Origin: Isurus oxyrinchus
Lineage: Eukaryota
NCBI GenBank assembly: GCA_026770705.1
Contig: JANJGN010000071.1
Location: forward strand, 2,480,001 to 2,544,000
Direction: 5' to 3'
DNA: 64,000 nucleotides
In this document: in pieces, positions 3,974 to 61,170 of the stretch
Layout of the letters: each line of letters starts with the position of its first letter
How positions within the stretch are numbered: position 1 is the stretch's first letter
Notes under the pieces: generated by a model
The model's database searches: none
The model's input: the letters and a program-made list of their open reading frames with translations, nothing else
What the model was told of the DNA's origin: nothing
Made by a program: the position numbers and the translations under genes

Positions 3974-4099
3974 CCATCCAGTCCAAGTTTCACTTTGGCC
4001 TGTGAGCAGAACACAGCTCACACAGTTTGGCTGCAGGTGTCTCCCAGCTTTCTATCCTTGTATATCTGTTCTCATGTCCCTGTTCTAAATAACTGAACC

Positions 4100-9538: not shown

Positions 9539-9680
9539 CCAGGACCTGTCCGACTGCTCGTCTGGGGAGGAACTGCCCACACGCTCTGCTTGGGCTGAAT
9601 GACCGCTTCCTGTGCTGCTCCCTCTGTGTGTTTAATTAGAAAGGGTGCATGTGTCACTTTGAGACAAAATGAGGAAGTTG
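9539..9680 (-). promoter_or_regulatory. Promoter and non-coding exon 1, copy A
   Basis: Donor tgg|gtaagt ending at 9539; AT-rich box 9631-9639; PU.1/ETS motif aaatgaggaagt 9667-9678; module is conserved in four copies. Confidence 0.6.
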
Positions 9681-9889
9681 GATCAAAGTGACAGAGCAGC
9701 TCATGTTTTGAGATGTTGGTGAATTGTTAACCCTTTGTGTCCTGACCCTGTGGTGATATTTCTGCTCACAGGTGGACAGTCATTGACCAGGAATTTCTCC
9801 TGTGGGTCAGTGGGTTTCACAGCCAAATTCAGGGGGTCAGAACTTTGTGGGGTTCAAGACCCCATTCAGGGGACGTCTGCCCCACAGAG

Positions 9890-11279: not shown

Positions 11280-11722
11280 TGTCCACTCCCAGGTATTTCA
11301 TTGGTTCTCAAGCTGTGAAAGAGAAATGAGTTAATGAGACCTCACCTCTTGTCCGACACCTCTCGAGAGATCAGAACTGCTTTTAGACAATGTCTTCACA
11401 GACTAATTTCATTCTCTGTGGGATGATATGTGCTCTGCAGAGAGTTACAAGGCTTTAAGAAAGTAAAACAATGAAGGACTTGCATTTCTATATCGCCTTT
11501 CCCCTGCTCAGGACGCCCCAAAGCTCATGTCCCTGCACTTCCCTCATCCCTTGAGCTAGAAAGATGTTCTGTACAACAGACCTGAGCCTCACACCCAGAT
11601 CTCAAGAATCAGTAGAAAGCTTTCAAAGGCATCAGTCATTGGAATCTGTCTTTATAAAGTCACAACATCAACAAAGGACGGTGTTGGTGGTGGAAGTGAA
11701 TTCCAATCGTTCCGTTACTTAC

Positions 11723-11865
11723 CCAGGACCTGTCCGACTGCTCGCCTGGGGAGGAACTGCCCACACGCTCTGCTTGGGCTGAATGACCTCTTCCTGTGCT
11801 GCTCCCTCTGTGTGTTTAATTAGAAAGGGTTGATGTGTCACTGTGAGACAAAATGAGGAAGTGGT
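11723..11865 (-). promoter_or_regulatory. Promoter and non-coding exon 1, copy B
   Basis: Donor gg|gtaagt at 11723; aaatgaggaagtg at 11851-11863. Confidence 0.55.
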
Positions 11866-13885: not shown

Positions 13886-13982
13886 CTGTAATAGAAACAG
13901 AAATGATCAGAGTGACAATCAGAGTGATCAGTGTTTAGTATTATTGATCCAAATCGAAAATTCCACCCACAATAGATACATT

Positions 13983-14792
13983 AATTATTGATACTGAACA
14001 GGGTTTGATTATTGACACTGAACAGGGTTTGATTATTGATTCTGAACGGGGTTTGATTATTGATTCTGAATGGGGTTTGATTATTGATTCTGAACGGGGT
14101 GTGATTATTGATTCTGAATGGGGTTTGATTATTGATACTGAACGGGGTTTGATTATTGATTCTGAATGGGGTATGATTATTGATACTGAACGGGGTTTGA
14201 TTATTGATTCTGAACGGGGTTTGATTATTGATTCTGAATGGGGTTTGATTATTGATTCTGAACGGGGTTTGATTATTGATACTGAACGGGGTTTGATTAT
14301 TGATTCTGAACGGGGTTTGATTATTGATTCTGAACGGGGTTTGATTATTGATACTGAACGGAGTTTGATTATTGATTCTGAACGGGGTTTGATTATTGAT
14401 TCTGAACGGGGTTTGATTATTGATTCTGAATGGAGTTTGATTATTGATTCTGAACGGGGTTTGATTATTGATTCTGAACGGGATTTGATTATTGATTCTG
14501 AATGGGGTTTGATTATTGATACTGAACAGGGTTTGATAATTGATTCTGAACGGGGTTTGATTATTGATACTGGAAGGGGTTTGATTATTGATACTGAACA
14601 GGGTTTGATAATTGATTCTGAACGGGGTTTGATTATTGATACTGAACGGGGTTTGATTATTGATTCTGAACGGGGTTTGATTATTGATTCTGAACGGGGT
14701 TTGATTATTGATACTGAACGGGGTTTGATTATTGATTCTGAACGGGGTGTGATTATTGATTCTGATCGGGATTTGATTATTGATTCTGAACG
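13983..14792. repeat. 24-bp minisatellite (ttgattattgattctgaacggggt), about 33 copies, intronic
   Basis: Direct reading; 8-aa periodicity in three ORFs. Confidence 0.95.
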
Positions 14793-14926
14793 GCGTTGGG
14801 TGTGAGTTTGGTTGGGTTTGGGAGTGACTGTATAAAACATTGCAGATGCAGGACTGGAGCAGCCATATCAATAACCAGGCTACTGGAGCAGCTAAGAGGC
14901 TGGGGATCCTGTGGTGTGTGACTCAC

Positions 14927-15380: not shown

Positions 15381-15542
15381 AAGATGTTCTGTACAACAGA
15401 CTTGAGCCTCACACCCAGATCTCAATAATCAGTAGAAATCTTTCAAAGGCATCAATCATTGGAATCTGTCTTTATAAAGTCACAACATCAACAAAGGACG
15501 GTGTTGGTGGTGGAAGTGAATTCCAATCGTTCCGTTACTTAC

Positions 15543-15685
15543 CCAGGACCTGTCCGACTGCTCGCCTGGGGAGGAACTGCCCACACGCTCTGCTTGGGCT
15601 GAATGACCTCTTCCTGTGCTGCTCCCTATTTGTGTTTAATTAAAAAGGGTGCATGTGTCACTGTGAGTCAAAATGAGGAAGTGCT
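15543..15685 (-). promoter_or_regulatory. Promoter and non-coding exon 1, copy C (no leader exon follows)
   Basis: Donor at 15543; aaatgaggaagtg at 15671-15683; homology stops at ~15379 against CR1 sequence. Confidence 0.55.
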
Positions 15686-22230: not shown

Positions 22231-22438
22231 GTGCCGGTCTGAATTTTGCCAAATGAATTTCGAACTGACGACCTTCTCACTCAGAGAGAGAGAGGGTTCG
22301 AAATCCAGTGACACACAGGAGAAATTCCTGGTCAATGACTTTCCACTTTTGAGCAGAAATATCATCACAAGTCCAGAACGCAAAGGGTTAACAGCTTCAA
22401 AAAACTCAAAACACGAGCTGTTCTGTCACTTTGATCCA

Positions 22439-22578
22439 ACTTCCTCATTTTGTCTCACAGAGACACATCAACCCTTTCTCATTAAATACACAGAGGGAGC
22501 AGCACAGGAAGAGGTCATTCAGCCCAGGCAGAGCGTGTGGGCAGTTCCTCCCCAGGCGAGCAGTCGGACAGGTCCTGG
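22439..22578 (+). promoter_or_regulatory. Promoter and non-coding exon 1, copy D
   Basis: acttcctcattt at 22439-22450, attaaata at ~22481, donor ctgg|gtaagt at 22578. Confidence 0.6.
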
Positions 22579-23029
22579 GTAAGTAATGGAACGATTGGAA
22601 TTCACTTCCACGACCAACACAGTCCTTTGTTGATGTTGTGACTTTATAAAGACAAATTCCAATGATTGATGCCTTTGAAAGATTTCTACTGATTATTGAG
22701 ATCTGGGTGTGAGGCTCAAGTCTGTTGTACAGAACATCTTTCTAGCTCAAGGGATGAGGGAAGTGCAGGGACATGAGCTTTGGGACATCCTGAGGTGCTG
22801 AAAGACGATATAGAAATGCAAGTCCTTCATTGATTTATTTTTTTTAAAGCTTTTTAACTCTCTGCAGAGCACCTATCATCCCACAGAGAACCAAATTAGT
22901 CTGTGTAGACAATGTGTAAAAGCAGTTCTGATCTCTCGAGAGCTGTCGGACAAGAGGTGAGGTCTCATTAACTCCTTTCTCTTTCACAGTTTGAGAGTCA
23001 GAAGCTAAAGGAATATCTGGGAGTGGACA

Positions 23030-23069
23030 ATGATCGGGAAATCCTACTTCCTCCTGTCACTTCTCCAAG
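23030..23069 (+). CDS. Leader exon D, MIGKSYFLLSLLQ; exon spans 22990-23069
   Basis: Acceptor ctctttcacag, ATG 23030, donor caag|gtaat, phase 1. Confidence 0.85.
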
Positions 23070-24079
23070 GTAATATCATCGTCAACTTGGACAGACTTAT
23101 GGCTAATAGTCTTTGTAAAAGATCATTCTTATTGAGCTGTGATAGGGAACTGATTCAGCAGTGAGCCAGTGTACAAACTCACACCAAGTCCCATTCACCC
23201 ATCACCCCTGTGCTCACTGATATACACTGACTCCCTGTCTGACAGCAGAACTGCAGGACAGCAGAGACCTCAAAGGGTTTCAGGGCTGGAGGAGGTGACA
23301 GTGATAGGGAGTGGAGAGGGAGGATGGAGGGATAAGGAATCAATGAAGAGATTTTGAAAATTGAGTCATTGCTGGACTGGGAGCCAGTGTAGGTCAGCGA
23401 GTGACAGGGGAGCGATCGGCTGAATAGAGAAGCAGGGATAAAAACTGGGGGATGAAGTCTATCCTGATGCAAGCACTCCGATATCAATGCCCTGAAATGT
23501 TTCTCTCTTGCTGATTTTCATCAGAATTTCCCATGAAGACAACACAGAAGCTCTTAGATTAGACAGGCAGTTCAGCGTCACACTTCCTGTCCCTTCTCAC
23601 CATGCTAGAAAATTCGATAAGATAGCAAGATAACTGATAGAGAGAAGGGAGGCAAAGCTGTCTGTATGTAAAACTGTCAAATATTCTGAGTTATCATGAT
23701 TGTTTCTGATCTGCTGCAGAGTTTATATTTCATTGAAACTTATCACTTTGCAGCTCAGAGAGAGACCATTGACTCACTGCCTGAAAGGGCGGTGGAAGCA
23801 GATTCAACAGGAACTTTCAGAAGGGGAACTGGATAAATACTTGAAGGGGAAATTTTGCAGGGTTGTGGAGGAAAGAGCAGAGGTGAGAGTGGGAATAATT
23901 GGACAGATCTTTCAAAGGCCCAGCACAGGCTCGATGGGCCAAATGTCTTCCTTCTGTTCCGGATCATTCTACAATCCGATAAATTAAGTCCCTTTTCAAT
24001 AACTCTCCAGGCTCCTGCTGCAGGAATGGATCTTTCAGAAGGGCAGGGAGCAAGCAGTTTCTCATATCATGTTCATATT

Positions 24080-27000
24080 TATTGACAATTACATAAGTGC
24101 ATGGAACTGTTGAATATTTGAGTCTCTAAAGTGTGGATTTAACCTTCTGGTACACCCAGATCTTGTGCTGGTTACCTTGTCTGGAGGTGTCTTTAACTGC
24201 TCACAGTGATCTGTGGGATTGTCACCCTTGGATGTTGTTCCTGATTTCATGTGGGATCTTCTCCTCGATGGAATAGGAGCGGGAATGGATCTGATTTATC
24301 CTCAGTTCCGCCTCACCGCTGTGCCCTTGTGTGTTTGACTCCATAGGCCCTTGGTTCTGAAAAATCCTTGTCACCTCGGCTGGTGGTCATGAACCTTCTG
24401 TGGGATCCTGGATGTGAACTTGTCCCAACTGTAAACTTGGCAACTGTGCACCTCCATTTTTATCATGAACATTCCTTATCTTCTCTTGTAGTTTTAAAAG
24501 TTGCCCTCTGGTTTCTGAGAGAGTAGAATGGGTAAGAATAGCGAAATTGGTCACTACTGGCCCACCAAACATGATCTCTGTCAGTGATGCAATAAGGTGA
24601 GGTGATGGTGTAGTGGTATTGTTGCTGGACGAGTAATTCAGAGACCCAGGGTAATGTCCTGAAAATATGAGTTCAAATCCTGCCATAATAGATGATGGAA
24701 TTTGAATTTAATAAAAAGATGAAATTCAAAGTCTAGTGATGACCACAAAACCATTGTTGGAAATCCCACCTGGTTCACCAGTGCCCTTTAGGGAACAAAA
24801 TTGCCTGGCCGACATGTGACTCCAGACTCCACGTCAATGTGGTTGACTCTTACATTAGGGATGGGTAATAAATCCTGGCCTGGCCAGTGACTCCCACATC
24901 CCATGAATGAATTTAACAAAGTTGCAGTTGTAGGTGTTGATCTCAGATGTAACATTGCAATGTGTGGATCTTGCTTGGTCTGTCTACATTTGAGAATTAG
25001 GGATTTCACTGGTGTGAATCATTCATTCAGCTAGGCCGTTAGATCTGGGGTAATGAGGAGAAGAAGTTGTGTGATTGATATTCCAGATTATATGTACTCA
25101 TGTCCCTAGGCTCACCAAATAAACTGAAAATAGTGCTTAGAATGTGTGCACCAGTAGTGCTCGGTGTGTTGTGTTATTTTTGAATAACGGGATATCTGGT
25201 AAAGCTGTCGACGATGACGATGAAGTCAGTGACATGGACATGAAAGGATTCAGATGTGAATTTGGACTAAGAATAGGCAGGAATTTCCTGTGGAATCAGT
25301 GGTTCTTTGTGTTGACTTGGCTCATCCTCTTGACAAGCCTCGAACTTCCCTACAACGACTTCAAGGTCATTGTTCATACCCGGCCAGTGACTGTATCTCT
25401 TGTGAGTCTCCCTGTCTGATCTGTGCCCATGTGTGAGGGATGAAGTTGTTGAAGAATATATCATCACAAAGGTTCCGGTATGATGCGATGCCTGCCATTA
25501 AAAATGACTCCCTGGGAGATGCCTCACTTATCCTGATGAGGTCAAGTTGAATCAGCCACCCTTTCAATGATATTTCCACAGTTCCTGTAGAATTTTTCAC
25601 TGTTCCCTCTTGTAGCTGCTGGCATTTCTGTTGTGCTAAATGTACTGGATCAATTGACAGACTTGCATTCTCCTGCAGGTGTAATGTTGCAGCTCCCTTG
25701 AAACTACAAATACTGTTGAAACTTTCTGCATATTTCAATGTTATGTCCATGAACTGAGTTGATGGGGTAGTTTCTGAGGTTGACCCATGTCAGGTCTGAC
25801 AGATTCCATGGATAGTCACTAGTGTGAGGTCACCGCATGCCGGTAGACTTGCAATTGCTCAGCCTTTAGTCTCCACAATGTAGAACATCTGTGACACCCA
25901 GGAGGATTGATTGTACTTGCACCCCAAGACTATGGATTCCGCACATGGAGTTGGTGAAGTGTTGTACACAGCAGTAGGTTTCCCCATGGACTTCCATGTC
26001 CTTGGATATATGTCTTTGAAAATTTGCTGGGGTGGGCTGGGGGAGGGGAATGTTGGCACTTGCCCTTGTGTCACTCTTGGCCAATAAAGGGGAGGTAGCC
26101 ACTTTCTCAGGGCAGATAATTGGAATCTTGGCCAATAGTGCGGGTGATGTGACAGCATCTGTTCTCCGTGAGATCGATGGTGTAAAAGGTGTGAAATTGT
26201 TCAACAATTGCACAAAACGTTGAGCACAAATGTTGCACAAACTCTAGGCCGGGGTTTTCCGGCCCGGTCATGGTGGGACCTGCCTTGGGAGATTGGGACA
26301 AATATAAATCCATTGGCTTTCGGCCGGACCGGACAATCCTGGCAGTGGGTGGGGCCAGAAAATCCTACCACTATGGGACATTTTCAGTTTATTTGATGTG
26401 CCCAGAGAGATCATTAAGGACAACAATCCACAATTTATTGGCAAGCCACGACAGGATATGTGTGAGAGGTGGAATATCGATCACCGCACCTCGTGTCGCC
26501 GTGCACATCCTCGCCATTTCCTGGTTTGTCAGTCACCACATGTATATGTTCCTGATGGGATAGCGGATGGTCATTCTTATTGATTGAAGGTTCCCCGTTG
26601 TGTAGGGTCTGTTTGGATCAGCGCACGGCTCTTTGCAGCTGCATCAGCCTTTGCTCTAGTGCTCTGCCGCTGTCACTGGCCCTTTCTGCCACAAGCCTTG
26701 CAGGATTGGTGGAAAGCTGGGCATTTCCTTGGTGCCTGCAGAAGGCCACACCTTCCACACGTCTCACTAGGTTTGGATGTTCTAGTGAGTGTGTCAACAA
26801 TTGATGTTGTACTGAGGACCTGTAAGCTTCGTTGACCTGCGAGGATCACTTCGTATTTATGTCCATCCTTGAGTAGCTCTTCAATGCTATAGGTTTTGGT
26901 CTTATCTAGCAGATCTTTCTGGAAGGCTTCCATGGGAGTGGATGCGATCACCAACTCAACAACTGTGTCTGCAGGCTCTGTGTTTGAAATCACAGTGCGT

Positions 27001-28020
27001 ACCCTTTTCTCTACATCGGCTGATGAAGTGGTCTATGGATTGTGTAGGCTGATGAAATGACATAAACTCTAGTTGATGAATATGGAGTTTCACCTGATTC
27101 TGAACCTGTCTTCCAATATCGTCCATATCTATTGGGGATCCTTTCGCTCTTCTGCTGTTAATCCTGACGTGTTCAGCCTGTGTAGACCTTCATTCCCAAT
27201 CACGAGGTGAATTTTTATGGCTTGTTCGTCTGGTTCAGTCACACCTGAATCAGGAAACCAGAGCTCTGTACGCTGTTTAAACATTCTGAATTCAGATAGT
27301 CGGTCAGCTACATCACAGTTCAAACTGGGGAATTTTGTGGACATTCTGACAATATTCCTTTGACCTTCCTTCTCCTACAGGACCTGGGATGAGTGTCGCT
27401 TTAGCCCCTTTCGTGCGCTTTTCCGAAGCTCCGCCCACGAAGATGGGTTGTGGCAGGAACACACCACGGAGTAATGGAGTCTTTGTTTTTTATTCAATTT
27501 GCTGTTCAGCAATCTCGAAGCCGCCCGTTATAATCACTAACTTCTCTGGGCTGATTTTTATAATGGTTTTTGTGTGTTTGACTCTCCCTCGCTCACTATC
27601 GATCCAGCCCACACCCTGGTCACTCGCCTTCCCTGACTGAGCTAACCCGCTGCTGGTCCTGGCGATACACACTGTCCCACTCACTGACCTACAGGCCGTG
27701 TGCTGTAATCTCACCACGAGGGATCCGTCTGCTCCCCAGCTCTTTACTTGAGCTCTTTCCCGTCACTGTGTCTTCAAAGGTTTCCTGAGCAGTCAGTACA
27801 CTGCGATTTCAACCCTCTCTGATGCTGTGTCTCTGTTGTGGTCTGACCAAAGCGTCGAGGGTCGTCTCATGTCATGTAGCTCGATCTCAGGCTGTTCACC
27901 ATGTCATACCTGTACTGAATCTTGCGGCCAGAATGTTTGGCCACCGCTGATCACCATGTTGTGTTTTTATAATGATATAAAGGCACCAGCCACTGATACG
28001 GAATTGGGTAAATACATTGT
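24080..28020 (-). mobile_element. Mirror copy of the degenerate Gypsy element at 4100-8050
   Basis: ORFs 27129..27344, 26673..26993, 25866..26240 and 24788..25009 mirror the left-arm remnants. Confidence 0.8.
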
Positions 28021-30797
28021 GGGTTCAGTTATTTAGAATGGGGACATGAGAACAGATATACAAGGATAGAAAGCTGGGAGACACCTGCAGCCAAACTGTG
28101 TGAGCTGTGTTCTGCTCACAGGCCAAAGTGAAACTTGGACTGGATGGTGTTATCATCCCAGCTGATGTTACTACTGGGCAAGTCAGATCCCAGGGTGGAA
28201 CTCAGCTTGATAGGTCCTAACTTTTATTTTTTATTTAGGAATGTGGAGTGCTGCTACTGAACAGAGTCACAGGAATCATCTGATGACCTTCTAACAAAAG
28301 AATAAAACATTTATTAAACTAGGAAAGACAAACTATATTACATTACTCCTTCACCCAGACCTATACCTTTACAGATTCATAAGTAGAATACAAGTTACAA
28401 TAACTATCTTATACTCTCATGTTCACACTAAGTACACAGTTCATGCAAACCAATAGACGACCTGGTGTCAGGGACACCACATTCTGTAACCAAGTGATAG
28501 ACCCCAATTGGAACAAATGCTATGGGTTTCAGCTCAACTGACTCCAGACACTTGTTTCACCATGAGGCAACTGGTCTTACAAAACTGTATCTTTCACATG
28601 AGAGTTTCCAATCTCTACTCGTCAAGTGCTCTCTTTGGAATCTTCTCCAACATGACACTTTCACTCAGAGACCTTCCACAAGGGTCCACTTCCACGATTT
28701 CAAACTCTCCTTCCCATGTTCCTGCCCCCTGGATCGCCACATGCATTCAGCCTTCCTTCTACGCGTTGTCTCTCCAATGCTCAGTCATGCCAATGGAACA
28801 CCATGGCTTCACATGGTCATAGTAAGAAGACATCAACATTTAGCTGTCTCCTATGATCTTCTGGCTTCTAATCAGCCTTTTTTGCTTTAGGTCTGTGTCC
28901 TTTTGCTTTTTCTCTTTTAGCTTGGATCCCTCCTCTGCTCCTCAATCTTATCTCGACTTAACAGGACCTTTTTCAGATTCCTGATCTTCTTTGGAGTAGA
29001 AGGTCTTCTTGGCTCTTTCTCCTGTTCCACTCGATAGTTTTGGCTTCTTCTTTACTTTGGGACTGACTATCTGTCCCGCTCCTTTGCTGCTTCTCCTGGC
29101 AACTCCTTTCAACCAAACTGAAAGCACATTTCTGTTTTTCTCTGTCTCTATGGGTCCATCCCTCTGGATCACTGTTGCTTAGCAATAGCACAGTTTCTTA
29201 CACCTTGTGTTTGTTTTGACTTTCCTTCAAGAGACATCAAACCCCATTAGATTGCTAAACGAAAATGAAACCAAAACTGAAGTTTCACCCTTTCTTAACA
29301 CACAAATACAGAAATCAAACTAAACTTGAACTTAAACATATACCTTATCCCTAACACACACAAATACACATAGAACTTACTTAAGCTATACCCAATTCCT
29401 AAAATCACATGACACACTTCCCCTCGAGTGATGTCATGCTGCTGTCCCTGAAAGGCATATTACAACAGTGTTATCACTTGGCAGGTGATGTGTGCCAGGC
29501 AGACCAAGTCCCTGAGAGAAAGATGGTCACATGATCATAATGATTTTGCAATTTGTATTTATTATGAGATGTGTGCACTGAATTCAGAAGCAATAATTAC
29601 ATAAAGACCTTTAGCGATTTGAAAATTAAATTAAAATACTTGCTCTCAAAATAAATGATTTGAAGCACATACATAACTCTACAATTACCACTATAATAAT
29701 TCTTAAAATTCTGAATTAAACTGACTCCCAGTTACACTCCCTTTAAGGCAACGGTCCAAAAATAGACTTTATATTTAAAACAAACCCAGCAAGTTAACAC
29801 AATATAAAAGCAATACCCTGCACAGAGGAATTCCAAGTGGCTTTTCCCCAACTTCAGTTCTGTTGGATAGCAGGCTTGTGCACAAATGCTAGAGGTTTCA
29901 TTAAGACTATATCACACACTCGTGTTAGATCTTACATGGCATTCTGACACATAGCCTTTCATTCTCCCTGATAGATATATATTTCTCTCTTTGTAACATG
30001 AAAATTCTATTGTTCCATATGTTTTTGAAACTGTATCTTCCACATAACAAACTCTTTCGTGGTGCCCATATTGCCAGGAGCCTTTGAGAAAAATAAACAC
30101 ATTCCTTAGTCTTGCTTATCTGGCTAGTTGTAAACAAGCTAAGATTCCTTTGAAATCCAACAACCCCTTCATTGATAGAAAAATGCAAATTCTCGTCATA
30201 CCTTCCATGCTAAGCAGCATCCATGTTTCCTCAATAGCATGTCAAGCACCTAGCTCCTTTTGATCATTTTAAACTTCCAATCTAATTAACTCCAAATGTA
30301 CTTAAATCACATGCAGACCCATCATGCGTACCCCCATAAACCTACTTCACAATATACTATAAAATATTATGAAAATTATTATACTTACATCACAATAGGA
30401 ACCACTGCCTTAGACACTGAGGATCTAGGACAGCTAGGCCAATTCATGATTCATGATGGTGATAATGGGGGAATTCTGAAGGCTCCTAATCCATTGTCCT
30501 ACGTTGTAAATCAGCAGTGAACTCACTTCAATTAGTGTGTCTTGTAGACACTGTGTTGGGTGGCAGACTGACTTCACTAAATAGGTACCTGAGGGTCATG
30601 AGCCAATGTAGAATGAACTTGTCCACTCCTGTGTCCGGAATTCTCTTCAATCTGTTGTGAAACCTTGGGGCATTCATTGTGTGACCTGTGGATTATCCAG
30701 ACTGCAGCCTGTGTGCCCCAGTGATGGAGGGGGTGGATATTGAGTCTAGTGGATTGAGAAAACATTCAGAGTTAAATATTGATATTTCTCTCCCTAG

Positions 30798-31172
30798 TTG
30801 GACTATCACAAGTGTGGAAAGGTGACACTCCAGGAGAGGTGACAGCGCACGAAGGTTCGTGTGTACAGATTCCATGTAATTACAGTTATCCATCATATTT
30901 AGTAGCGAGATCACCAGTCGGAATCTGGTATATGAGAAGGAATTGGGAAAAATGGAATGAACGGTCTATAGCCTTTCACTCCAAGGATCATAATCGCGAG
31001 TTACCACAGTTCCACCATCGGACCCAGCTGTCTGGAGACCTGAAAGATGGCGACTGTTCCCTGATTATAAACAACATCAGACGGGAAGATGCAGGATATT
31101 ATTTATTCAGCCTAGAATTTGACAACAGGAATAGATACAACGACCGTCCTGAAACCCAGCTTCACGTTTCTG
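30798..31172 (+). CDS. Siglec-like V-set exon V1, essential Arg replaced by Ser (YYLFSLE)
   Basis: Acceptor ctctccctag, donor g|gtaagt, 375 nt open, phase 1-1, Siglec Cys pattern. Confidence 0.9.
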
Positions 31173-31419
31173 GTAAGTGCTGTGTTATAATTACTCAACA
31201 ATTCACATCCAACACTCAATGGGAAATAATAGTGTTTGATTTGCTTGTTTTTTGGCCGTGTTAACCAGCGCCACTATTTTTAATGATTTGTCTATTTCTG
31301 CTCCCAGATCCATAAGCTTATTGTGTGTGATTGAATCCACATCATAGCTGTAACATAAACCGAGCTGAGGGGTGATGACACCTCCCCCCTGAGTGAAGTA
31401 TCTCCTCCCCACTACACCT

Positions 31420-33180
31420 TCCACCCCTCACACTGTCCGTGTAAACCCCCGTCCCATCTCCAGCCTCTCTTTCCCCTCCAAAGTCCTGCAACCTGTTTCC
31501 ATCTCCCGAATCTGTTCCCATCTTTCCCGGAACTCCATGTTTGAATCCCTCCAATCAGGTTCCCACCCCAGCCACTGTGCTGAAACAGCTCTTATCAAGG
31601 TCACAAATGGCATCCTGTGTGACTGTGACAAAGGTCAACTTTCCCTCCTCGTCCTTCTCGATCTGTCTGCAGCCTTTGACACGCTCGACCACACCATCCT
31701 CCTCCAACACCTCTCCACTGTCGTCCAGCTGGGTGGGACTGCTCTCCCCTGGCTCCATTCTTATCCATCTCATCGTAGCCAGAGAATCACTTGCAATGGC
31801 TTTGCAGCATCATCTGAACAGTGTTGGTTTTCACCTGTCCACTGAGGATCCCCAGCTCTACCTCACCACCACCTCTCTCGACTCCTCCACTGCTGCTAAA
31901 TTATCAGGCTGCTTATCCGACATCCAGTACTGGATGGGCAGAAATTCCCTCCAATTAAATATTGGAAAGACTGAAGCCATTGTCTTCATTCCCCGCTCCA
32001 AACTCTGTTCCCTCGCTACCAACTCCATTCCTCTCCCTGGCAGCTCTCTGAGATTGAAGCCAATCTGTTCACAGCTTTGTTGTCCCATTTGATCCTGAGA
32101 TGAGCTTCCGGCCTCCTATCTGCGCCCTCACTAACACCGTCTATTTCCACCTCCGTAACATCGCACGACGTCACCCTGTCTCAGCTCATCTGCTGCTGAA
32201 ACCCTCATCCGCGCCTTCATTACCTCCAGTCTCGACTGTTCCAACACACGCTCTACACTCCATAAACTTGAGGCCATCCAAAACTGCTGACCACGTCCTT
32301 ACTCACACCAAGTCCCGTTCCCTTATCACCCGCTCTGCTCGATGACAGAGACTGGCTCCTGGTCAAGCAAAATGTCAACGTCCAAATTTTCATCTTTGTT
32401 TCCTCACTATCCCTGTAATCTTCTCGTCCTCCTCCAGTACCTACAACCATCCCATTCTCTGTAACCTCTTCAAGCCTCTACCGCTTCCCTATATCTGTAA
32501 ATTCATCCTGCCCAACAAACCTACCAATCTCTGCAACCTCCTCCAGCCACAACAAACCTCCCTATTTCTGTAACTTCCTCCTGCCCCTAAAAGCTTCCCT
32601 ATCTCTGTAGCCTGCTCCAGTCCCGACAACTTTCCCTGCCCCTGTAACCTGCCCCAGTCACTACAACCCTCCCGACCTCTGCAAACTCCTCCAGACTCTA
32701 CACTCTCCCAATCTCTCTTAACTTTTCCAGCCCCTACAAACCTCCCTATCGCTATAACTCATCCAATCACTACAAACCTCGCTATCTCTGTAACCTCCTC
32801 CAGCCCCTACAACCCTCCCTATCTCTGTAACCTCCTCCAGACCCACCAACCTTCAGAGGTCTCTGCGCTCCTCCAATTCCAGCCTCTTGACCATCCCCCG
32901 ATCTCAACACTCTAACATCGGTGGCCATGCCTTCAGCTGCCTGGGGACCGAGCTCCGTAATACCCTCCCTTAAGCCCTCTCCATCCCTCACACTCACTCT
33001 CTCTCTCTCACTAACCATTTCATCCCTCTTTTAAGTTTCTCCATAACACCGATCCCTTCTGGTCAGCTGTCGCTAATATCTCCACATGTGTCTGCGTGAC
33101 ATACTTTGTTTTATGACGCTCCTGTGTAGCACCTTGGGGTGATTTGTCATGTTAAAGTTGTTGTGAAAATATAAGTTGTT
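31420..33180 (+). mobile_element. L2-clade LINE 3' part with embedded 37-bp minisatellite (32410-32850)
   Basis: RT motifs LLDLSAAFDT, LNIGKTE and FHLRNIAR, followed by L2-type 3' sequence. Confidence 0.8.
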
Positions 33181-33299
33181 GCCCTTTGACCCTCGACCCC
33201 AGATTGAGTCTTATTTTTGAGGGAATGTACAACCTGCTTAGATTTCTGACCAAAGTGTCATTTGATTATTTTTATTGAGCGAATGCCAAGCCCCGATAC

Positions 33300-33665
33300 C
33301 GAGCGAGAGCCTCCTCATTTGCTGAGTTTAAGGTGATGAGTCAGCCCCTTAGTCCGTAGAGGGGATTCTCCTCGGTAATGTACAGCCTTGTTTGTGTCTC
33401 TCCACAAGCGCATGAGGGATTTGTACAGAGGCTGCAGCGCTGGAGGGGGTCTGCACAGGGGTCCTGGCCTGTCCTGAGCTGGTTTTAGCAAGGACCACTC
33501 TGGCCTTGGCAGCTGAAAGCCAGCCATTGGACAGACAGGGCCTGTCACAAGGAGCCTGTTAGTCACTCCCCCCCGTGTCTCCTGTGCTCGGATCCAGACC
33601 ATGTTGGCTGGTGGATCTGGCTCAGGAAGGGTCCTCCCCATGGGACCCCCAGATGGAAGGTGGGT
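33300..33665 (-). mobile_element. Non-LTR retrotransposon C-terminal fragment (second copy ~35610-35970)
   Basis: Frameshifted GFQLPRPEWSLL..QLRTGQ..CACGETQT..I resembles the C-terminal zinc-knuckle region of RTE-X/I-like LINEs; clade uncertain. Confidence 0.5.
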
Positions 33666-33719
33666 CGAGCGGGTCAGTCACTTGCATGTTTATTCTGCAG
33701 TTTTAATATTTTAAGAAGG

Positions 33720-34455
33720 TAAGAATGTAGGAACATAAGAAATAGGGACAGGAGCAGGCCATTCGGCCCCTCGAGCCTGCCCTCGCTGATCTGGTTGTGG
33801 CCTTAACTCCATTTTCTTGCCTGTCCCCCAAACCCTTGACTCCCTTGTCGATCAAAAACCTGCCTCACTCAGCCTTGAGTCTATTCAATGGCCCAGCCTC
33901 CACTGCTCTCTGGGGAAGAGAATTCCACAGGCTAGCGCCCCTCTGAGAGAGGAAATTCCTCCTCATCTCAGTCTTAAATGGGAGAGTCCTCATTCCGAAA
34001 CTGTGCTCCCTGGTTCTAGATTCCCCCACGAGGGGGAAACATCCTCCCAGCATCCACCCTGTCAAGCCCCCTCGGAATTGGATATGTTTCAATAAGGTCA
34101 CCCCTCATTCTTCTAAACTCCAATGGATACAGGCCCAACCTGCTCAACATTTCCTCACAGGACAAACCCTTTAGTCCCAGGAATCAGCCCAGTGAAGCTT
34201 CTCTGAACTGCCTGTACACAATGATCCTGTTACAATCTCACTAACGCCCTGTGCAGCTGTTGCAAGACTTCCCTCCTTTTATACTCCATCCCTTTGCAAT
34301 AAAGGCCAACATTCCACTTGCCTTCCTCATTCCGTGGTGTTCCTGAATGCTGACTTTCTGTGATTCATGTACAAGGACACCCAGATCCCTCTGTACTGCA
34401 TTCTGCAGCCTGTCTCCATTTAAATAATATCCTGTTTTTCTATTCTTCCTGCCAA
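33720..34455 (-). mobile_element. CR1-clade LINE 3' fragment (second copy ~36030-36765)
   Basis: QRDLGVLVHESQK..KASGMLAFI and RNFLSQRGASLWNSLPQRAVEA. Confidence 0.85.
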
Positions 34456-34576
34456 AATAATTTGTTGCCATTCTCCTCAGTATTGACCATCCCCCCAATT
34501 CAGCCTCATCTGTAAATTATGAGTCTAGTGGATCCACAAACCATCCAGAGATAAATATTGAGATTTCTCTCCCCAG

Positions 34577-34945
34577 TTGGACTGTCACAAGAGTGGAAAG
34601 GTGACACTCCACGAGAGGTGACAGCGCAGGAAGGTTCGTGTGTACAGATTCCATGTCATTACAGTTATCCATCGTGTCTGGAAAACCAACCGCGAGGTGG
34701 ACTCTGGTTTAATAATGAGAAACAGATTCCCTGGGCTCCCATTGCCTTTCACTCCAAGGATCACAGTCACGAGTTACCACGGTTCCACCATCGGACCCGG
34801 CTGTCTGGAGACCTGAAAGATGGCGACTGTTCCCTGATTATAAACAACATCACATGGGAAGATGCAGGACCTTATTTTTTCAGAATAGAATTTGACAATG
34901 GTCCGAGCCATAACTATTACCCTGTAACCCAGGTTCACGTTTCTG
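34577..34945 (+). CDS. Siglec-like V-set exon V2, Arg present (PYFFRIE)
   Basis: Acceptor ctctccccag, donor g|gtaagt, 369 nt open, phase 1-1. Confidence 0.9.
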
Positions 34946-36883: not shown

Positions 36884-37249
36884 CTGAACCCTCACAAGAG
36901 TGGAAAGGTGACACTCCACGAGAGGTGACAGTGCAGGAAGGTTCGTGTGTACAGATTCCATGTCATTATAGTTATCCATCATGTCTGGAAAACCAACCGC
37001 GAGGTGGAGTCTGGCTTAATAATGAGGAATGGAGAACATCGTCTATAGCCTTTCACTCCAAGGATCACAGTCACGAGTTACCACGGTTCCACCATCGGAC
37101 CCGGCTGTCTGGAGACCTGAAAGATGGCGACTGTTCCCTGATTATAAACAACATCACATGGGAAGATGCAGGACCTTATTTTTTCAGAATAGAATTTGAC
37201 AATGGTCCGAGCCATAACTATTACCCTGTAACCCAGGTTCACGTTTCTG
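36884..37249 (+). CDS. Siglec-like V-set exon V3, Arg present (PYFFRIE)
   Basis: Acceptor ctctccccag, donor g|gtaagt, 366 nt open, phase 1-1. Confidence 0.9.
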
Positions 37250-37977
37250 GTAAGTGCTGTGTTATAATTACTCAACAATTCACATACAACACTCAATGGG
37301 AAACAACACAAACTGTGACGTTTACATATTAACACAAAACACAGGTTATTATAACACACTGTCTGATTCTCAATAACCTGGTGATAGCTTCCAGTTCACT
37401 CCTAAAGCAACCTCTAATACTCACTTTAATATCAATGATTAAATGTATTGACTGTGTCCATCAATGTTATCAGGTTATCCACTCCCATCGATCTCTCTAA
37501 TCCTGTCTCGAAGTCTGACTTAGCGACAGAAGAAAGATTCACAATTCTGTAGCACTTTTCACCACCTCAGCATGGACCAAATCACTTCACAGCCAATGAG
37601 CTGATTCCTGAATTGTAGTTACTATTGTAATGTGGGAAACACAGCAACCAATTTGTGCACAGCAAGCTCCCACAAATTGCAAAGTAAAAAATGGCCTAGA
37701 TCGCTGAGGGACTGATGGGTTAGTGCACTCCAAACTCTGGTCTGCTCCACCACCCTCACCCACTATTATCAGTTCAAGTGTCTCGGAGTGAACGTGTATT
37801 AAGCTGAGAGACAGAAACACCAAAGTCTCAAAGCAGGAAATTCTCTCCTAATCATTGTAACCTCTCAGATCTGATATCATCCTTGTAAAAGTGCTTTCTC
37901 TTGTGGGACTGTGATTTCTATTTGAACTGATACTTCACGTTATATTTCTCTAAAAGGATCCATTCTCTGTCTGTTAG

Positions 37978-38274
37978 ATTTCACAGATAAACCCATGATA
38001 TTCCCTGCTGAAATTATTGCAGGAAAGCGTGTGGATGTAAGCTGCACCTTCAACACAACGTGCAATGGAACAGCAGCACCTGTCTTAACCTGGGACACTC
38101 CCACTGACGTACCTGGATCAGTCTCAAACACTGTAACTCAGCATGGTGTCACTCTGACCTATACTTCTGTTCTGACCCTGATCCCATCACTCAAACACCA
38201 CGGACACACTCTCAGCTGCAGAGTGAGATATCCATCTGTTTCATCGGAGCGGACCCTCGTACTAACTGTGCAAG
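37978..38274 (+). CDS. Siglec domain-2 C2-set exon DFTDKPMIFPAEIIAGKRVDVSCTFNTTCNGTAAPVLTW...LSCRVRYP...LVLTVQ
   Basis: Acceptor ctgtctgttag, donor caag|gtaaga, 297 nt, phase 1-1; extra Cys (TTCNG) for the V-C2 inter-domain bond typical of Siglecs. Confidence 0.9.
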
Positions 38275-38599
38275 GTAAGAACGGACACCCTTCATTCTAC
38301 ATCAGCACTCCCTCAGCGCTGACCCTCTGACAGTGCAGCCCGTTCTCAGTGTCCACATTCTCATGCCTCTCAAAGTGCTTCACAGTCGATAGAAGTTAAC
38401 TGATCTTTATTTGATTGTTGCTGAATGAAGAGACAAGCTGTCTAAACTTTGCATCTCACACACATTATTTTCCATGGCAACACCTCCTCCAATCAGAGAC
38501 CACTTGCTGATTAACCAGCACTCTCTTCCCTTTAAATATAAATTGTTGTTCACTTTCTGTTGGTAAACCTGCAATCTGTCTTGTTGAGTCCGGTCCTGA

Positions 38600-38749
38600 C
38601 ATCTGAATATCACAATGAACAGAACAAGTTCCAACAATGAGCTGTGGTTGGTGATTCCTCACGTTACATCCAGGGACACTGGAGACTATCAGTGTGCTCA
38701 GAGAATGAACATGGAGCAGTGGAGGGGTTCATAACCATCACTGTGGAAC
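38600..38749 (+). pseudogene. Broken third Ig exon (3' half only, frameshifted)
   Basis: HLNITMNRTSSNNELWLVIPHVTSRDTGDYQCA, 1-nt shift at ~38699, then ENEHGAVEGFITITVE with donor c|gttagt. 5' half and acceptor are absent. Confidence 0.75.
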
Positions 38750-39863
38750 GTTAGTTAAGACAAACTTCAACATCTCTCTCAGATTGAGACACTACAAAAA
38801 CACACATAAATATCCAGCCTTAAACAGACACCTGCAGACACACAATCCCACATCTATGAGCACACACAAAGGCACACTCACAAACAAACACACTAGCACA
38901 TACTCCCCTGTGGATTACCTGACCTCCCTCAGTGCTGCACCGGAGAGTTGACCTGGATTCTGGGATTTGTGTTCCCTTTCATATTTATGGAAGAATATGG
39001 AAATTGCAAAGTCTATTACAGACACTCAGATGCACAGAGATACTCACAGATACTCTCTGCCTCTCCAACTCTCTATCCTACTTTAAGAACCTTCCTGAAA
39101 TCTAACTCTTTGACCAGTCACCTGTCCCAATTCCTCCTTACGTGATTTTGTGTGAAATTTTGTTTGAGTATCTGAGAGTAAGAGGGAAGTGGAGAGGTTT
39201 AGGAAGGGAATTCCTGTTGGTGAAAAGCTTACATCAAGTTCTCAGCTTTCCAGTGCCCATTTTTCACATGATGTCCATGTTCATAATGGGGATTGCCTAT
39301 GTAAACATCACGCTGTAGTTACACTCTCCCACCAGTGGTAGCACGGTAACACTTAACCCTTGCATCTCCAAGCTTTTCAAGCAATTTCACTTCCTAATTT
39401 GCTACTATTCACCTTAACCAGTCCCTGTGGGAGCGAGTTCCATATTCTCCCCTCTCTCTGGGTAAAGATTGGAACTGTTTATTAAGCGGGGGGTGTAAGT
39501 CCGTGTGGGAGTCCATCCCGATACTGCCCGATTCGCACACACGTCCGAGATGGATTTCCACCCTGCACTAAACGTTTCCAGAATTTTCTACAGCACAATC
39601 CTGTACACAGCGATGGAGAGAAACATTGGACAGGGAGTCCAACAGCACAATGATCCATTCTCACCAATGTTCCACGCTAAGGGGAAAGTTCCGATTGTCC
39701 ACTCTTAGAGTGTTTACAATGAAAACATTCATTCCACATTGAATTCCAGTGGATGGGTCAATATTACAGCAAATGTTGCAGTGATATGAAGCTTGATTGT
39801 TCAGCCAGAGTGAGAGATTGAAAGCGGAGAGTCAGTGATGATTTCTTTCTGTGTGTTCTCTAG

Positions 39864-40003
39864 ACAGTGGAGGAGAGATTCTGCACGTGATCCTGATCCT
39901 GGGAATACGAGCTGTGATATTCCTTGTGGCTGTGGTTATCACTATCGCTGGAGTCTGTGTCTGGGAGAGACAAACAGTGAAAGGAAGTCGACAGCCTGTT
40001 TGA
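39864..40003 (+). CDS. Terminal transmembrane exon SGGEILHVILILGIRAVIFLVAVVITIAGVCVWERQTVKGSRQPV* with intramembrane Arg
   Basis: Acceptor tttctttctgtgtgttctctag, phase 1, hydrophobic stretch with CGA (Arg) at 39908-39910, TGA at 40001-40003, aataaa at 40387. Confidence 0.8.
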
Positions 40004-40734
40004 AGCTTTGTACAGCAACAATCTGGTCAGTCAGTGCGGACAAATAACGTGTGATGTTGGGTTATGTTGTAATGAAACTGGTCAGTGTCCTGGTTAGAAT
40101 CATCTCCGTATCATCGAGTCATTCCAGCAATGGAGGAGGACATTTGGCCCATTGAGTCTATGCTGTCTCTCTGTAAAGCAATCCACTCAGTCCCATCCCC
40201 CGCTCTATCCCCGTATCCCTGCAAAGTTATTTCCAATTTCCGTCCAATTTCCTTTTGAAATTGTTCATCGAGTAGGAATGAACAGAAATGTGACGTTGCT
40301 AAACTCTGTTCTCTGATTGGAATGTGCTTTCTGAATGCTGCACCATTTTCATGCTGCGATAGATTGTAAGAAGCATTTGGGTTATGAATAAAATTACATT
40401 GATTAACACAAGTGATTAAAATGCTCAGCCTGTTCTGTAGATATTTAAAGATTAAAATTCTTGTTTTGCTGCAAAATACTTGGCTCAAAGACATAGCTTC
40501 CTGTTGTCACGTATTCCAATCAGATGAATTCCTCTGTCCATCTTTATAATAGAAATTTCCAATGTAAACATGTCACATTGTAACTGCACACTCTTGCCAG
40601 TGGGTGGTGTGATACCAAAGCTGTCTTGCTGCAGAGAAACAGAGAGAAATATTCCTGTTGTGTGCATGAACTTCATGTTAGCATGAGACACAGGCATCAG
40701 ATGAAATTTTGTGCAATTTGTACAATGTTCTTTA

Positions 40735-41350
40735 GACAGTGCAGCACTCCCTCAGATCAGACCCTCCGACAATGCAGCACTCCCTCAGTTCAAACCCTCC
40801 GACAGAGCAGCACTCCCTCAGTTCAAACCCTCCGACAGTGCAGCACTCCCTCAGTTCAGAACCTCCGACAGTGCAGCACTCCCTCAGTTCAGACCCTCCG
40901 ACAGTGCAGCACTCCCTCAGTTCAGACCCTCCGACAGTGCAGCACTCCTTCAGTTCAGACCCTCCGACAGTGCAGCACTTCCTCAGTTCAAACCCTCCGA
41001 CAGTGCAGCTCTCCCTCAGTTCATACCCTCCGACAGTGCAGCACTCCCTCAGTTCATGCCCTCCGAAAGTGCAGCACTCCCTCATTTCAGAGCCTCCGAC
41101 AGTGCAGCACTCCCTCAGTTCAGACCCTCCGACAGTGCAGCACTCCCTCAGTTCATACCCTCCGACAGTGCAGCACTCCCTCAGTTCAGACCCTCCGACA
41201 GTGCAGCACTCCCTCAGTTCAGAGCCTCCGACAGTGCAGCACTCCCTCAGTTCAGAGCCTCCGACAGTGCAGCACTCCCTCAGCTCAGACCCTCCGACAG
41301 TGCAGCACTCCCTCAGTACTGAACCTCCGACAGTGCCGCACTACCTCAGT
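40735..41350. repeat. 33-bp minisatellite (gacagtgcagcactccctcagttcagaccctcc), about 18 copies
   Basis: Direct reading; 11-aa periodic ORFs. Confidence 0.95.
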
Positions 41351-56368: not shown

Positions 56369-56772
56369 GTTTGAGCCTCACGCCCGGTGGTTGTTTCCTG
56401 TCCCAGCTGAGGACTGGCGCCATGTTGTACATCCTGTAAATCCCGCCAGTCTCTCCCAGCACTTTCCATGCCTGGCGCTATTTCCATGGTGCGCTTCAAA
56501 TCGATGTCGGCTTCTGCGAGTAAACGGCTCTGAATGGCGTTGGGGTGAACGACACAAACCAATCGGCCCCGCAACATGTCATTGAGTGTGTCTCCGAGGT
56601 CCCAGTGCTCAGTCACCTGCTTCCACTTCACTGTATAGGTTGCGATGGACTCTCCCTGGGCCCTTACTCTGGAGTTAAACTTAAACCTCTGCATTATTAC
56701 CCACGGCTTCAGCTGAAAACAGATCTTCATGAGGTCGACTAATTGGTGAAAAGATTTAGAATTGGGTGCAAT
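55700..56772 (-). mobile_element. Gypsy gag-protease fragment, related to the 18538-21882 element
   Basis: MQRFKFNSR..LNDMLRGRLV, knuckle CSRCGGH..CHHC, GEGPSLLGRDW. Confidence 0.8.
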
Positions 56773-57057
56773 ACACGTCACTGTCTTCAGCTCTGAGACT
56801 ATCAATCCTCACCAAACAATTCTTCCCTTCCAAGTCGCCGATTATTTTAGCACGTCCCACGAATGTGGCCACCCCATAATTGGGATCTTTGGTGTATGTG
56901 ATGGTATATTTCCATCTATACCAATATTTATACCAAGCTCCGTGCAGTGCTGTGTAAGAGTGGGAAGGAAAGTCAAAGCTACACGGAATAACCACACAAG
57001 AGCTGCTGATGGCCCTCCGAGGCAGCGCCTTCATAGACCATCCCTCTGACGTCACTC
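56772..57057 (-). pseudogene. Divergent Siglec-like V exon truncated at the F strand
   Basis: Acceptor ttgcctttcag; GVTSEGWSM..SSCVVIPCSFDFP..GAWY..GRAKIIGDLEGKNCLVRIDSLRAEDSDVY, then Gypsy sequence and a stop. Confidence 0.8.
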
Positions 57058-57119
57058 CTGAAAGGCAACAAGGGAGGGGACTGGACATCAAAAAGCAGAA
57101 TATTACTTCAATGGAGAGA

Positions 57120-57560
57120 GTCTACAGAATGCGGTACAGAGGGATCTGGGTGTCCTTGTACATGAATCACAGAAAGTCAGCATTCAGGAACACCACGGAA
57201 TGAGGAAGGCAAGTGGAATGTTGGACTTTATTGCAAAGGGATGGAGTATAAAAGGAGGGGAGTCTTGCTACAACTGTACAGGGCGTTGGTGAGATTGTAT
57301 CAGGAGCAGTGTGTACAGTTCTGGTCTCCTTACTTAGGGAGGGATAGACTCTGCATTGGACGCAGTTCAGAGGAGGTTCACTGGGCTGATTCCTGGGATG
57401 AAGGGGGTTTGTCCTGTGAGGAAATGTTGAGCAGGTTGGGCCCTGTATCCATTGGAGTTTAGAAGAATGAGAGGTGATCTTATTGAAACATATAAGATTC
57501 TGAGGTGGTGGGGGGTTTGACAGGGTGGATGCTGAGGGGATGTTACCCCTTGTGGGGGAA
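57120..57560 (+). mobile_element. CR1-clade LINE fragment
   Basis: LLQLYRALVRLYQEQCVQFWSPYL. Confidence 0.8.
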
Positions 57561-57923: not shown

Positions 57924-58189
57924 CTTCAGTTCCTCATCTAAATGGAAAATGATAAAGACAGAGACTTTTTCATAAATTGTCCCCAGTGTTTCTTCCTCAA
58001 ACAACAACAACTTGTGTTTAAATGGCACCTTTCAGGGAATTAAACAGCCCCAGGGAATTATCTAATGTCAAGACAAGGAAGGAGAGATTGAGAAGGGACA
58101 TCGCAAACCGATTCACCAAACACGGCAAAAATTCATTGTTCCCTCACTCCCTGTGCTGGGTGTCCAGCTTTTTCTCTCAGTGAGTTTAG

Positions 58190-61170
58190 TCCTCACAATC
58201 TCGATCTATCGCACTCTTCTGCTCTATCTCTCTCTCTCACACACACACATTCTCTCTCTAACACTCACAATCTCTATCTATCACACTATTCTGCTCTCTC
58301 TCTCTCTCTCACACACACATTCTCTCTCTAACACTCACAATCTCTCTCTATCACACTCTTCTGCTCTATCTCTCTCTCACACACACACCTTCTCTCTAAC
58401 ACTCACAATCTCTCTCTATCACACTCTTCTGCTCTATCTCTCTCTCTCACACGCACACATTCTCTCTCTAGCACTCACAATCTCTCTCTATCGCACTCTT
58501 CTGCTCTATCTCTCTCTCACACACACACCTTCTCTCTAACACTCACAATCTCTCTCTATCACACTCTTCTGCTCTATCTCTCTCTCTCTCACACACATTC
58601 TCTCTCTAACACTCACAATCTCTCTCTATCACACTCCTCTGCTCTATCTCTCTCTCACACACACACACACATTCTCTCTCTAACAAGCACAATCTCTCTC
58701 TATCACACTCTTCTGCTCTATCTCTCTCTCACACACACACATTCTCTCTCTAACAAGCACAATCTCTCTCTATCGCTCTCTTCTGCTCTCTCTCTCTCTC
58801 ACAAACACACACATTCTCTCTCTAACACTCACAATCTCTCTCTATCGCACTTTTCTGCTCTCTCTCTCTCACACACACACATTCTCTCTCTAACCCTCAC
58901 AATCTCTCTCTATCACACTCTTCTGCTCTATCTCTCTCTCACACACACACCTTCTCTCTCTAACACTCACAATCTCTCTCTATCACACTCTTCTGCTCTC
59001 TCTCTCTCTCTCAAACACACACATCCTCTCTCTAACACTCACAATCTCTCTCTATCACACTCTTCTGCTCTGTCTCTCTCTCTCACACACACACATTCTC
59101 TCTCAAACAAACACAATCTCTCTCTATCGCTCTCTTCTGCTCTCTCTCTCTCTCACACACACACATTCTCTCTCTAACACTCACAATCTCTCTCTATCAC
59201 ACTCCTCTGCTCTATCTCTCTCTCTCTCACACACACACATTCTCTCTCTCTCACAAACACAATCTCTCTCTATCACACTCTTCTGCTCTATCTCTCTCTC
59301 TCACAAACACAATCTCTCTCTATCGCACTCTTCTGCTCTATCTCTCTCTCTCACACACACACATTCTCTCTCTAACACTCACAATCTCTCTCTATCGCAC
59401 TCTTCTGCTCTATCTCTCTCTCTATCGCACACACATTCTCTCTCTAACACTCACAATCTCTCTCTATCACACTCCTCTGCTCTATCTCTCTCTCACACAC
59501 ACACACTTTCTCTCTCTAACACTCACAATCTCTCTCTATCGCTCTCTTCTGCTCTCTCTCTCTCTCTCTCACACACACATTCTCTCTCTAACACTCACAA
59601 TCTCTCTCTATCGCACTCTTCTGCTCTCTCTCTCTCTCTCTCACACACACATTCTCTCTCTAACCTTCACAATCTCTCTCTATCGCACTCTTCTGCTCTA
59701 TCTCTCTCTCTCTCACACACACATTCTCTCTCTAACATTCACAGTCTCTCTCTATCACACTCTTCTGCTCTCTCTCTCTCTCTCACACACACACATTCTC
59801 TCTCTAACACTCACAATCTCTCTCTATCGCACTCTTCTGCTCTCTCTCTCTCTCTCACACACACACATTCTCTCTCTAACACTCACAATCTCTCTCTATC
59901 GCACTCTTCTGCTCTCTCTTTCTCACATGCACACACCTTCTCTCTCTCAAACTCACAATCTCTCTCCGTTGCACTCTTCTGCTCTCTCTCTCTTTCACAC
60001 ACACATATTCTCTCTCTAACACTCACAATCTCTCTCTATCGCACTCTTCTGCTCTATCTCTCTCACACACACACACACATTCTCTCTCCAACACTCACAA
60101 TCTCTCTCTATCGCACTCTTCTGCTCTCTCTCTCTCACACACACACATTCTCTCTCTAACACTCACAATCTCTCTCTATCACACTCCTCTGCTCTATCTC
60201 TCTCTCACACACACACACTTTCTCTCTCTAACACTCACAATCTCTCTCTATCACACTCTTCTGCTCTCTCTCTCTCTCTCACACACACACATTCTCTCTC
60301 TAACACTCACAATCTCTCTCTATCACACTCCTCTGCTCTCTCTCTCTCTCTCACACACACACATTCTCTCTCTAACACTCACAATCTCTCTCTTTCACAC
60401 TCCTCTGCTCTCTCTCTCTCTCTATCACACATGCATTCTCTCTCTAACACTCACAATCTCTCTCTATCGCACTCTTCTGCTCTATCTCTCTCTCTCTCAC
60501 ACACACATTCTCTCTCTAACACTCACAATCTCTCTCTATCGCACTCTTCTGCTCTATCTCTCTCTCTCTCACACACACATTCTCTCTGTCTCCCTCCCTC
60601 AAATACATTCTCTCTCTCTCTCTCAGACACAAACACTCTCTCACACACTCACACACTTTCCCTAAAACTAACACAATCTCCCTTTCTGTCAAGCACACAC
60701 TCTCTCTCACACACACACACACACTCTCTCAGACACACACATTCTCTCTCTCACAAACATTTAACATTTCACTTCATCTCGCTCTTCTGCTGTCTCTCTC
60801 TTTCTCTCCCTCACACATACACACTCTCTGTCACAAACACACTCTCTCTCCCACACACTCTCTCTCACACACACACACACTCTCTGTCACAAACACACTC
60901 TCTCTCCCACACACTCTCTCTCACACACACACACACTCTCTGTCACAAACACACGCTCTCTCCCACACACTCTCTCTCACACACACACACACTCTCTGTC
61001 ACAAACACACTCTCTCTCCCACACACTCTCTCTCACACATTCTCACATGCACACTCTCTCCCTCATATACAAACACTCTCCCTCACACATGCACACACTC
61101 TCTCTATCTCTTTTTCTCTCTCACACAGTCTCTCTGTCTCTCTCTGTCTCTCAGACACTCTCTCTCTCTC
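58190..61170. repeat. CT/CA-rich ~62-66-bp tandem array and low-complexity tail
   Basis: Unit of the form acactcacaatctctctctatcacactcttctgctcta(tc)n(ac)nattctctctcta. Confidence 0.95.

Follow-up and report, generated by a model that had tools for sequence, protein, structure and literature searches.

The window analysed here is a 64,000-nt stretch of Isurus oxyrinchus DNA (GenBank assembly GCA_026770705.1, contig JANJGN010000071.1, positions 2,480,001 to 2,544,000 of the forward strand). An intact shark Siglec gene ends its coding sequence in the exon at 39864-40003; its other exons and associated features are listed in Table 1. In silico splicing of six exons yielded a protein of 528 residues with no internal stop, and all introns were bounded by GT..AG. 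The product consists of a leader, three V domains, one C2 domain, a single transmembrane (TM) segment with an arginine and a tail of 12 residues. V2 and V3 arose by a 2.3-kb tandem duplication. An additional cysteine follows the YSYP motif in V2 and V3 and is missing from V1. The leader is separated from V1 by 7.7 kb, with mobile-element-like DNA in between.

Table 1. Features of the Siglec gene and its last coding exon (window coordinates).
Feature	Position	Strand	Evidence or remarks
Leader exon of 13 codons and 1 nt, starting with ATG at 23030, GT donor	23030..23069	+	Exact match to N-terminus of shark Siglec models
V1, V-set, outermost	30798..31172	+	Pfam V-set 4.9e-13; RNA joint 31172 to 34577, family level
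V2, V-set	34577..34945	+	Retains the F-strand Arg; V domains of two ITIM-type genes are 96% identical to it
V3, V-set	36884..37249	+	Best PDB match Siglec-5, E 2.5e-13; RNA joint to C2
C2-set exon	37978..38274	+	Pfam C2-set_2 2.9e-9; RNA joint 38274 to 39864, directly onto TM exon
Relic second Ig exon, 5' half lost, 1-nt frameshift near 38696	38600..38749	+	Skipped in RNA
Intron end and TM exon homologous to CD2/SLAM-like gene on contig C21	39507..39986	+	66% over 495 nt, E 2e-55
TM and tail exon, coding part	39864..40003	+	Acceptor, frame and RNA joint
Intramembrane Arg codon CGA	39908..39910	+	CpG codon, yet CGA intact in 30/30 loci; Arg in 10/10 census copies
Cytoplasmic tail, 12 residues, no Tyr, with TGA stop (40001-40003)	39965..40003	+	
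Splice donor in 3' UTR, 22 nt past stop	40026..40031	+	RNA loose end at 40025 (run X5); acceptor exon deleted in this copy
AATAAA, likely poly(A) signal	40387..40392	+	

The layout is that of a Siglec, with an N-terminal V-set domain, then a C2-set domain and a single TM segment. The Siglec pattern of disulfide-pairing cysteines comprises two near the N-terminus of the V domain, one in the E strand and an extra one in the first C2 domain, and this pattern was recovered in alignments to CD33 and Siglec-5. The nearest named proteins were white-shark and basking-shark models (92-99% in the C2 domain), which places the source among the lamniform sharks, and the best PDB matches of V3 included Siglec-8, Siglec-10, CD33 and MAG beside Siglec-5. 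The V and C2 domains of a white-shark relative matched CD33 (1e-26), MAG (2e-24) and Siglec-5 (2e-23), and the cysteine pattern and the F-strand arginine align. The PDB scores for CD33 and MAG were nearly equal and single out neither as the orthologue, and the shark gene differs from both in having tandem V domains, the outer of which lacks the arginine. That essential F-strand residue is serine in V1 and is retained in V2 and V3, where histidine replaces the G-strand aromatic residue. Because V1 is without the arginine and V2 and V3 carry histidine at the aromatic site, sialic-acid binding by the product is uncertain. Across the family, 30 of 32 intact V exons had the arginine; 8 of the 40 V exons were left out of this count, two of them with serine.

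The acceptor before 39864 is pyrimidine-rich (…TGTGTTCTCTAG) and the exon is in phase 1. Translation from 39866 gave SGGEILHVILILGIRAVIFLVAVVITIAGVCVWERQTVKGSRQPV, followed by a stop. Since this frame is open for only 53 amino acids from stop to stop, the exon is absent from a list of open reading frames. Reading 39864-40003 in another frame or on the minus strand was considered and rejected, as this gave stops or a polar, non-membrane peptide. The arginine is the 11th of the 29 residues I5-W33; in most of the best hydropathy windows it occupied position 6-8, and in one window of the 21- and 23-residue lists position 11. Seven non-polar residues flank it on the outer side, and the 18 residues past it are hydrophobic enough to make most of a helix by themselves. 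None of the 12 residues after the tryptophan is tyrosine. The TM stretch quoted in the preliminary description also holds a histidine (position 7), for which catshark proteins have aspartate; the edge of the membrane is therefore probably to be placed immediately past this residue. A predicted monomer fold of the segment was a single long helix over residues 3-41, a result that does not fix the membrane boundaries.

RNA contigs were drawn from runs that included X1, X5 and X6, which represent three studies and whose RNA class is an automatic guess. The C2 exon was joined to the TM exon (38274-39864) at GT..AG in these three of four runs, with the relic Ig exon skipped; the shorter side of this joint measured 56, 30 and 29 letters, so that one alone passes the 31-letter bar. 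The V3-C2 joint (37249-37978), also at GT..AG, was present in the same three runs, and neither of these joints was seen in X7. The V-V joint (31172-34577) was likewise found in X1, X5 and X6 and was absent in X8 (three of four runs). Over all joints the shorter side ranged from 19 to 56 letters, a single one exceeding the bar, and every joint fell on a predicted site. Of 30 loci, 29 showed loss of the 5' part of the relic exon and one had no relic at all. Inclusion of this exon was rejected: none of five in-frame AG paths had a pyrimidine tract or restored the domain. A contig from X7 that joins 38749 to 39864 was assigned to another paralogue, since it carries the base that restores the frame, differs at many sites and has a frameshift in the TM exon.

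The preliminary description had proposed a hidden exon encoding one arginine in the outer part of a TM helix and a tail of about 12 residues without tyrosine; the acceptor, the frame and the RNA joint to 39864 bear out the exon, the hydropathy windows place the arginine as described, and the tail has exactly 12 residues after the tryptophan. It had also named an internal donor leading to a tyrosine-containing tail as a finding that would overturn it. No donor-like motif was found in the coding part of the exon, no RNA joint left it, and contigs continued through the stop. The only donor found is the one past the stop. In X5 it led to a sequence that, in 8 of the 10 copies of the census described below, forms a non-coding exon preceded by an AG acceptor. 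The window copy has lost this acceptor exon by a deletion of ~685 nt and has kept AATAAA. At position 39995 all four runs had A where the window copy has C; the RNA evidence therefore covers the family rather than the window copy, and it is at family level that expression was observed.

The Arg-TM exon gave at least 150 matches at 96-100% in the genome assembly and 246 candidates on 15 contigs, with at least 34 on the window's own contig among the matches listed. Other exon queries, with at least 150 scored matches each, yielded 338 candidates for the uncharged TM exon, 911 for C2 and 1061 for V; a candidate is not the same as a gene copy, and haplotypes left uncollapsed may have raised these totals. 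In a census of 664 contiguous kb, 10 Arg-TM exons, 12 long-tail uncharged TM exons and 6 uncharged TM exons of a third type were interleaved. Scaling this census to the ~13 Mb of matching contigs gives, as a rough extrapolation, about 500 genes. Eight of the census Arg-TM exons were whole; of the other two, one lacked 6 codons and one was frameshifted. Many neighbouring genes were broken.

Of 21 long-tail exons, 8 encoded a canonical ITIM and 1 had a stop at that site, and the end of the tail held a TxYxxI motif in 20. The C2 distance was 1.80% between signalling classes and 1.77% within them (permutation p 0.24; 9 and 10 genes). Because the Arg-TM genes are interspersed among ITIM-tailed genes, and the two cannot be told apart by their C2 exons, the two classes are read as a paired-receptor cluster. 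One class has a basic TM residue and a short tail free of tyrosine motifs, and the linked ITIM genes have a near-identical ectodomain, in keeping with the definition of paired receptors given in the available text of PMC13358205. The near-identity of the copies owes in part to recent duplication. Among 8 copies the TM exon differed by 0.9%, compared with 2.7% for the upstream intron. Diversity of the V domains peaked in the BC to C-C' region (pN 0.26, compared with 0.048 for the framework, 0.014 for C2 and 0.007 for the TM exon). As pS was equally high in V, these values are explained no better by selection than by exchange between V lineages. No case for positive selection on V was made, pN/pS being below 1 in all partitions (0.89 for BC to C-C', 0.53 for the framework; 32 of 40 V exons). 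ITIM-type genes in C71:1880001-2480000 varied widely: V exons numbered 1-5, the second Ig exon was present in as many as 10 copies, and tail exons formed as many as 4 tandem sets.

Several other features were recorded in the window. An inverted duplication of 9.8 kb (1-9818 and 22300-32137; 95.6%) holds the leader and V1 of the Siglec gene together with those of a second gene that is transcribed divergently; the C2 exon and third-type TM exon of this second gene sit left of the window (C71:2475243-2479295). A 5' UTR exon upstream of the leaders (22486-22578, 9500-9644, 11684-11828 and 15504-15648) is similar to the exon with which the cytoplasmic part of third-type genes begins, and RNA joins 22578 to ~22990; the promoter and tail modules seem to have a common origin. 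On the minus strand, orphan duplicated cytoplasmic exons of a third-type gene lie at 12-18.5 kb with no adjoining ectodomain, and a divergent Siglec-like V exon at 56756-57121 (28-33% to V1-V3) is truncated on its 3' side, at the point where retroelement-like sequence starts. Minisatellites of 24 nt and 33 nt and a long CA/CT-rich repeat, which give long spurious open reading frames, occupy 13948-14805, 40735-41330 and 58000-61200.

The TM arginine was present in 18 of 18 related proteins (65-93% identity), a count that is partly circular since these proteins, 9 among 120 listed C2 homologues and 9 from further searches, were picked by TM likeness. It was invariant over the eight shark species represented while neighbouring residues varied. 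Rays and bony vertebrates were not represented among 10 matches to the TM segment, a weak negative given a query of 45 residues. Two stingray models (P0111, P0113) have a different Arg-bearing TM segment with a short tail and may represent an activating Siglec form of independent origin.

Included in the 18 proteins are sialoadhesin/CD22-like ectodomains, which are 26-35% like that of the window gene, and two non-Siglecs, one of them labelled SLAM family member 9-like. The likeness of the CD2/SLAM-like gene on contig C21 to the window gene spans the TM exon and ~360 nt of upstream intron. The C21 intron segment had a single match in the genome, by a check that skips very common words, and within the 664 kb it occurred only in the 10 Arg-TM introns; a common repeat shared by the two introns was rejected at that sensitivity. 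Because the nucleotide likeness covers the intron and the intron segment is not a dispersed repeat, the TM exon is best read as having been copied as DNA between unrelated receptor genes, a Siglec and a CD2/SLAM-like receptor. Both forms are found in carcharhiniform and lamniform sharks, which suggests that the transfer predates the split of these orders. The C21 copy itself looks broken, with a stop in V and glutamate in the TM segment. Two tandem CD2/SLAM-like genes were seen at C21:89408000-89447700 (L162-L167), one with an uncharged TM exon and one broken with the Arg-TM exon; these are a possible former pair. A further multi-copy family, 33-37% similar to the CD2/SLAM-like C2 domain, was found on C790, C795, C1410, C962, C87, C225, C133, C219 and C62 (L144-L156). 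One additional candidate, P0135, was dropped as a repeat artefact.

Receptors that combine a basic TM residue and a short tail dock on the aspartate pair of an ITAM-bearing dimer, and GPVI, LILRA and NKp46 are partners of FcR-gamma with a TM arginine. We consider it probable that the exon supplies the anchor and short tail that make this receptor the activating member of a pair, its arginine docking an ITAM adaptor dimer, most likely FcR-gamma. The activating-type reading of the preliminary description is supported as far as sequence reaches, the tail being free of tyrosine and the twins with the same ectodomain bearing ITIMs. The buried arginine would pair with the two aspartates of the adaptor dimer, clustering by ligand would cause the ITAM to be phosphorylated and set off Syk-type signalling, and the receptor may counter microbes that engage its inhibitory twins. 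If coupling occurs, FcR-gamma would be the partner somewhat favoured by these data, DAP12 a distinctly weaker candidate and CD3-zeta or DAP10 an improbable one. The genome encodes FcR-gamma-like and CD3-zeta-like TM exons with aspartate, for which a named shark match exists. The FcR-gamma-like exon was seen on two small contigs (L074, L075) with near-identical flanks, possibly two haplotypes. DAP12 was undetected in the genome by profiles PF07213 (DAP10) and PF02189 (ITAM), searches that were uninformative. According to the available text of PMC1440944, FcR-gamma favours arginine in the TM segment's N-terminal portion, near its outer end, as at position 3 in FcalphaRI, and DAP12 favours lysine at positions 7-12. 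The window arginine, at position 6-8, falls between the two.

Activation might instead proceed through DAP12, as in the mammalian Siglec-14, -15 and -16, of which Siglec-14 reportedly carries an arginine. Every activating Siglec named in the reviews, in so far as their text was available, uses DAP12 through lysine or arginine, those texts describe no Siglec coupled to FcR-gamma, and position 6-8 touches the DAP12 range. Assembly of KIR with DAP12, however, fell to 15% on substitution of lysine by arginine (PMC1440944, available text), and it is an FcR-gamma exon that was found directly in the genome assembly; we regard the DAP12 route as unlikely. Less likely still is a non-signalling decoy or ligand sink, which would compete with the inhibitory twins without an adaptor, its arginine doing no more than lie close to the head groups on the outer side. 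The 18 residues past the arginine could form most of a helix alone and the tail has no motif, but the seven non-polar residues on the outer side, the invariance of the arginine amid varying neighbours and its persistence as the exon moved to other receptor families all argue against such a sink.

Whatever the family does, the window copy could be a silent passenger of recent segmental duplication. The C at 39995 occurs in no RNA contig, the usual 3' UTR acceptor is lost, a near copy (C71:2296910-2304558) is without the TM exon, and the long leader-V1 gap holds mobile-element-like DNA. On the other hand, all six exons and their splice sites are intact, rare variants drop out of contigs, and the runs probably come from other individuals or species. 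Silence of this copy is a serious but minority possibility. Returning to the docking of an ITAM adaptor by the arginine, a broader account can be offered tentatively, and is on balance somewhat doubtful as a whole: a portable Arg-TM cassette would have been copied with its intron onto CD33/MAG-like and sialoadhesin/CD22-like Siglecs and CD2/SLAM-like receptors, in this shark it would drive more than 150 genes of a multi-megabase paired Siglec complex with variable V number, and the wiring would be to FcR-gamma instead of DAP12.

The arrangement resembles that of primate Siglec-5/14 and Siglec-11/16, in which an ITIM form has as its neighbour an activating form whose TM segment holds a basic residue and whose tail is short, with near-identical ectodomains kept alike by exchange (PMC13358205 and PMC5701461, available text). 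C2 exons that do not sort by class and a V2 close to ITIM-type V domains are the pattern described for Siglec-11/16 in the same portion of PMC5701461. The shark system differs in having hundreds of genes rather than one pair and 1-5 V domains per gene; its TM exon is shark-specific by search and need not descend from the mammalian ones, and the adaptor may be FcR-gamma. FcalphaRI, an FcR-gamma partner, is likewise a type I protein with an arginine in the outer helix and a short tail (PMC1440944, available text); the shark ectodomain is unrelated to it, and by hydropathy the arginine lies 3-5 residues deeper than position 3.

NCBI shark gene models (CD33-like and Siglec-12/13/14-like, for example XP_041037190.1) already end in the same exon and TM segment with the same C2-to-TM junction, but their names are automatic and they state neither a signalling class nor pairing nor copy number. 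Neither paired Siglecs of sharks nor this exon were found described in the openly readable literature covered; Siglecs receive a single mention in the available text of the whale shark genome paper (PMC8455134). The exon is known from automatic gene models; the case gains its weight from how large the paired cluster is, from V domains in tandem and from the evidence at nucleotide level that the exon was transferred. If correct, acquisition of a ready-made TM exon from another family would be a third route to an activating receptor, where PMC1440944, in its available text, invokes point mutation. Cartilaginous fish would then possess Siglecs in activating and inhibitory pairs, in a system much larger than the mammalian cluster.
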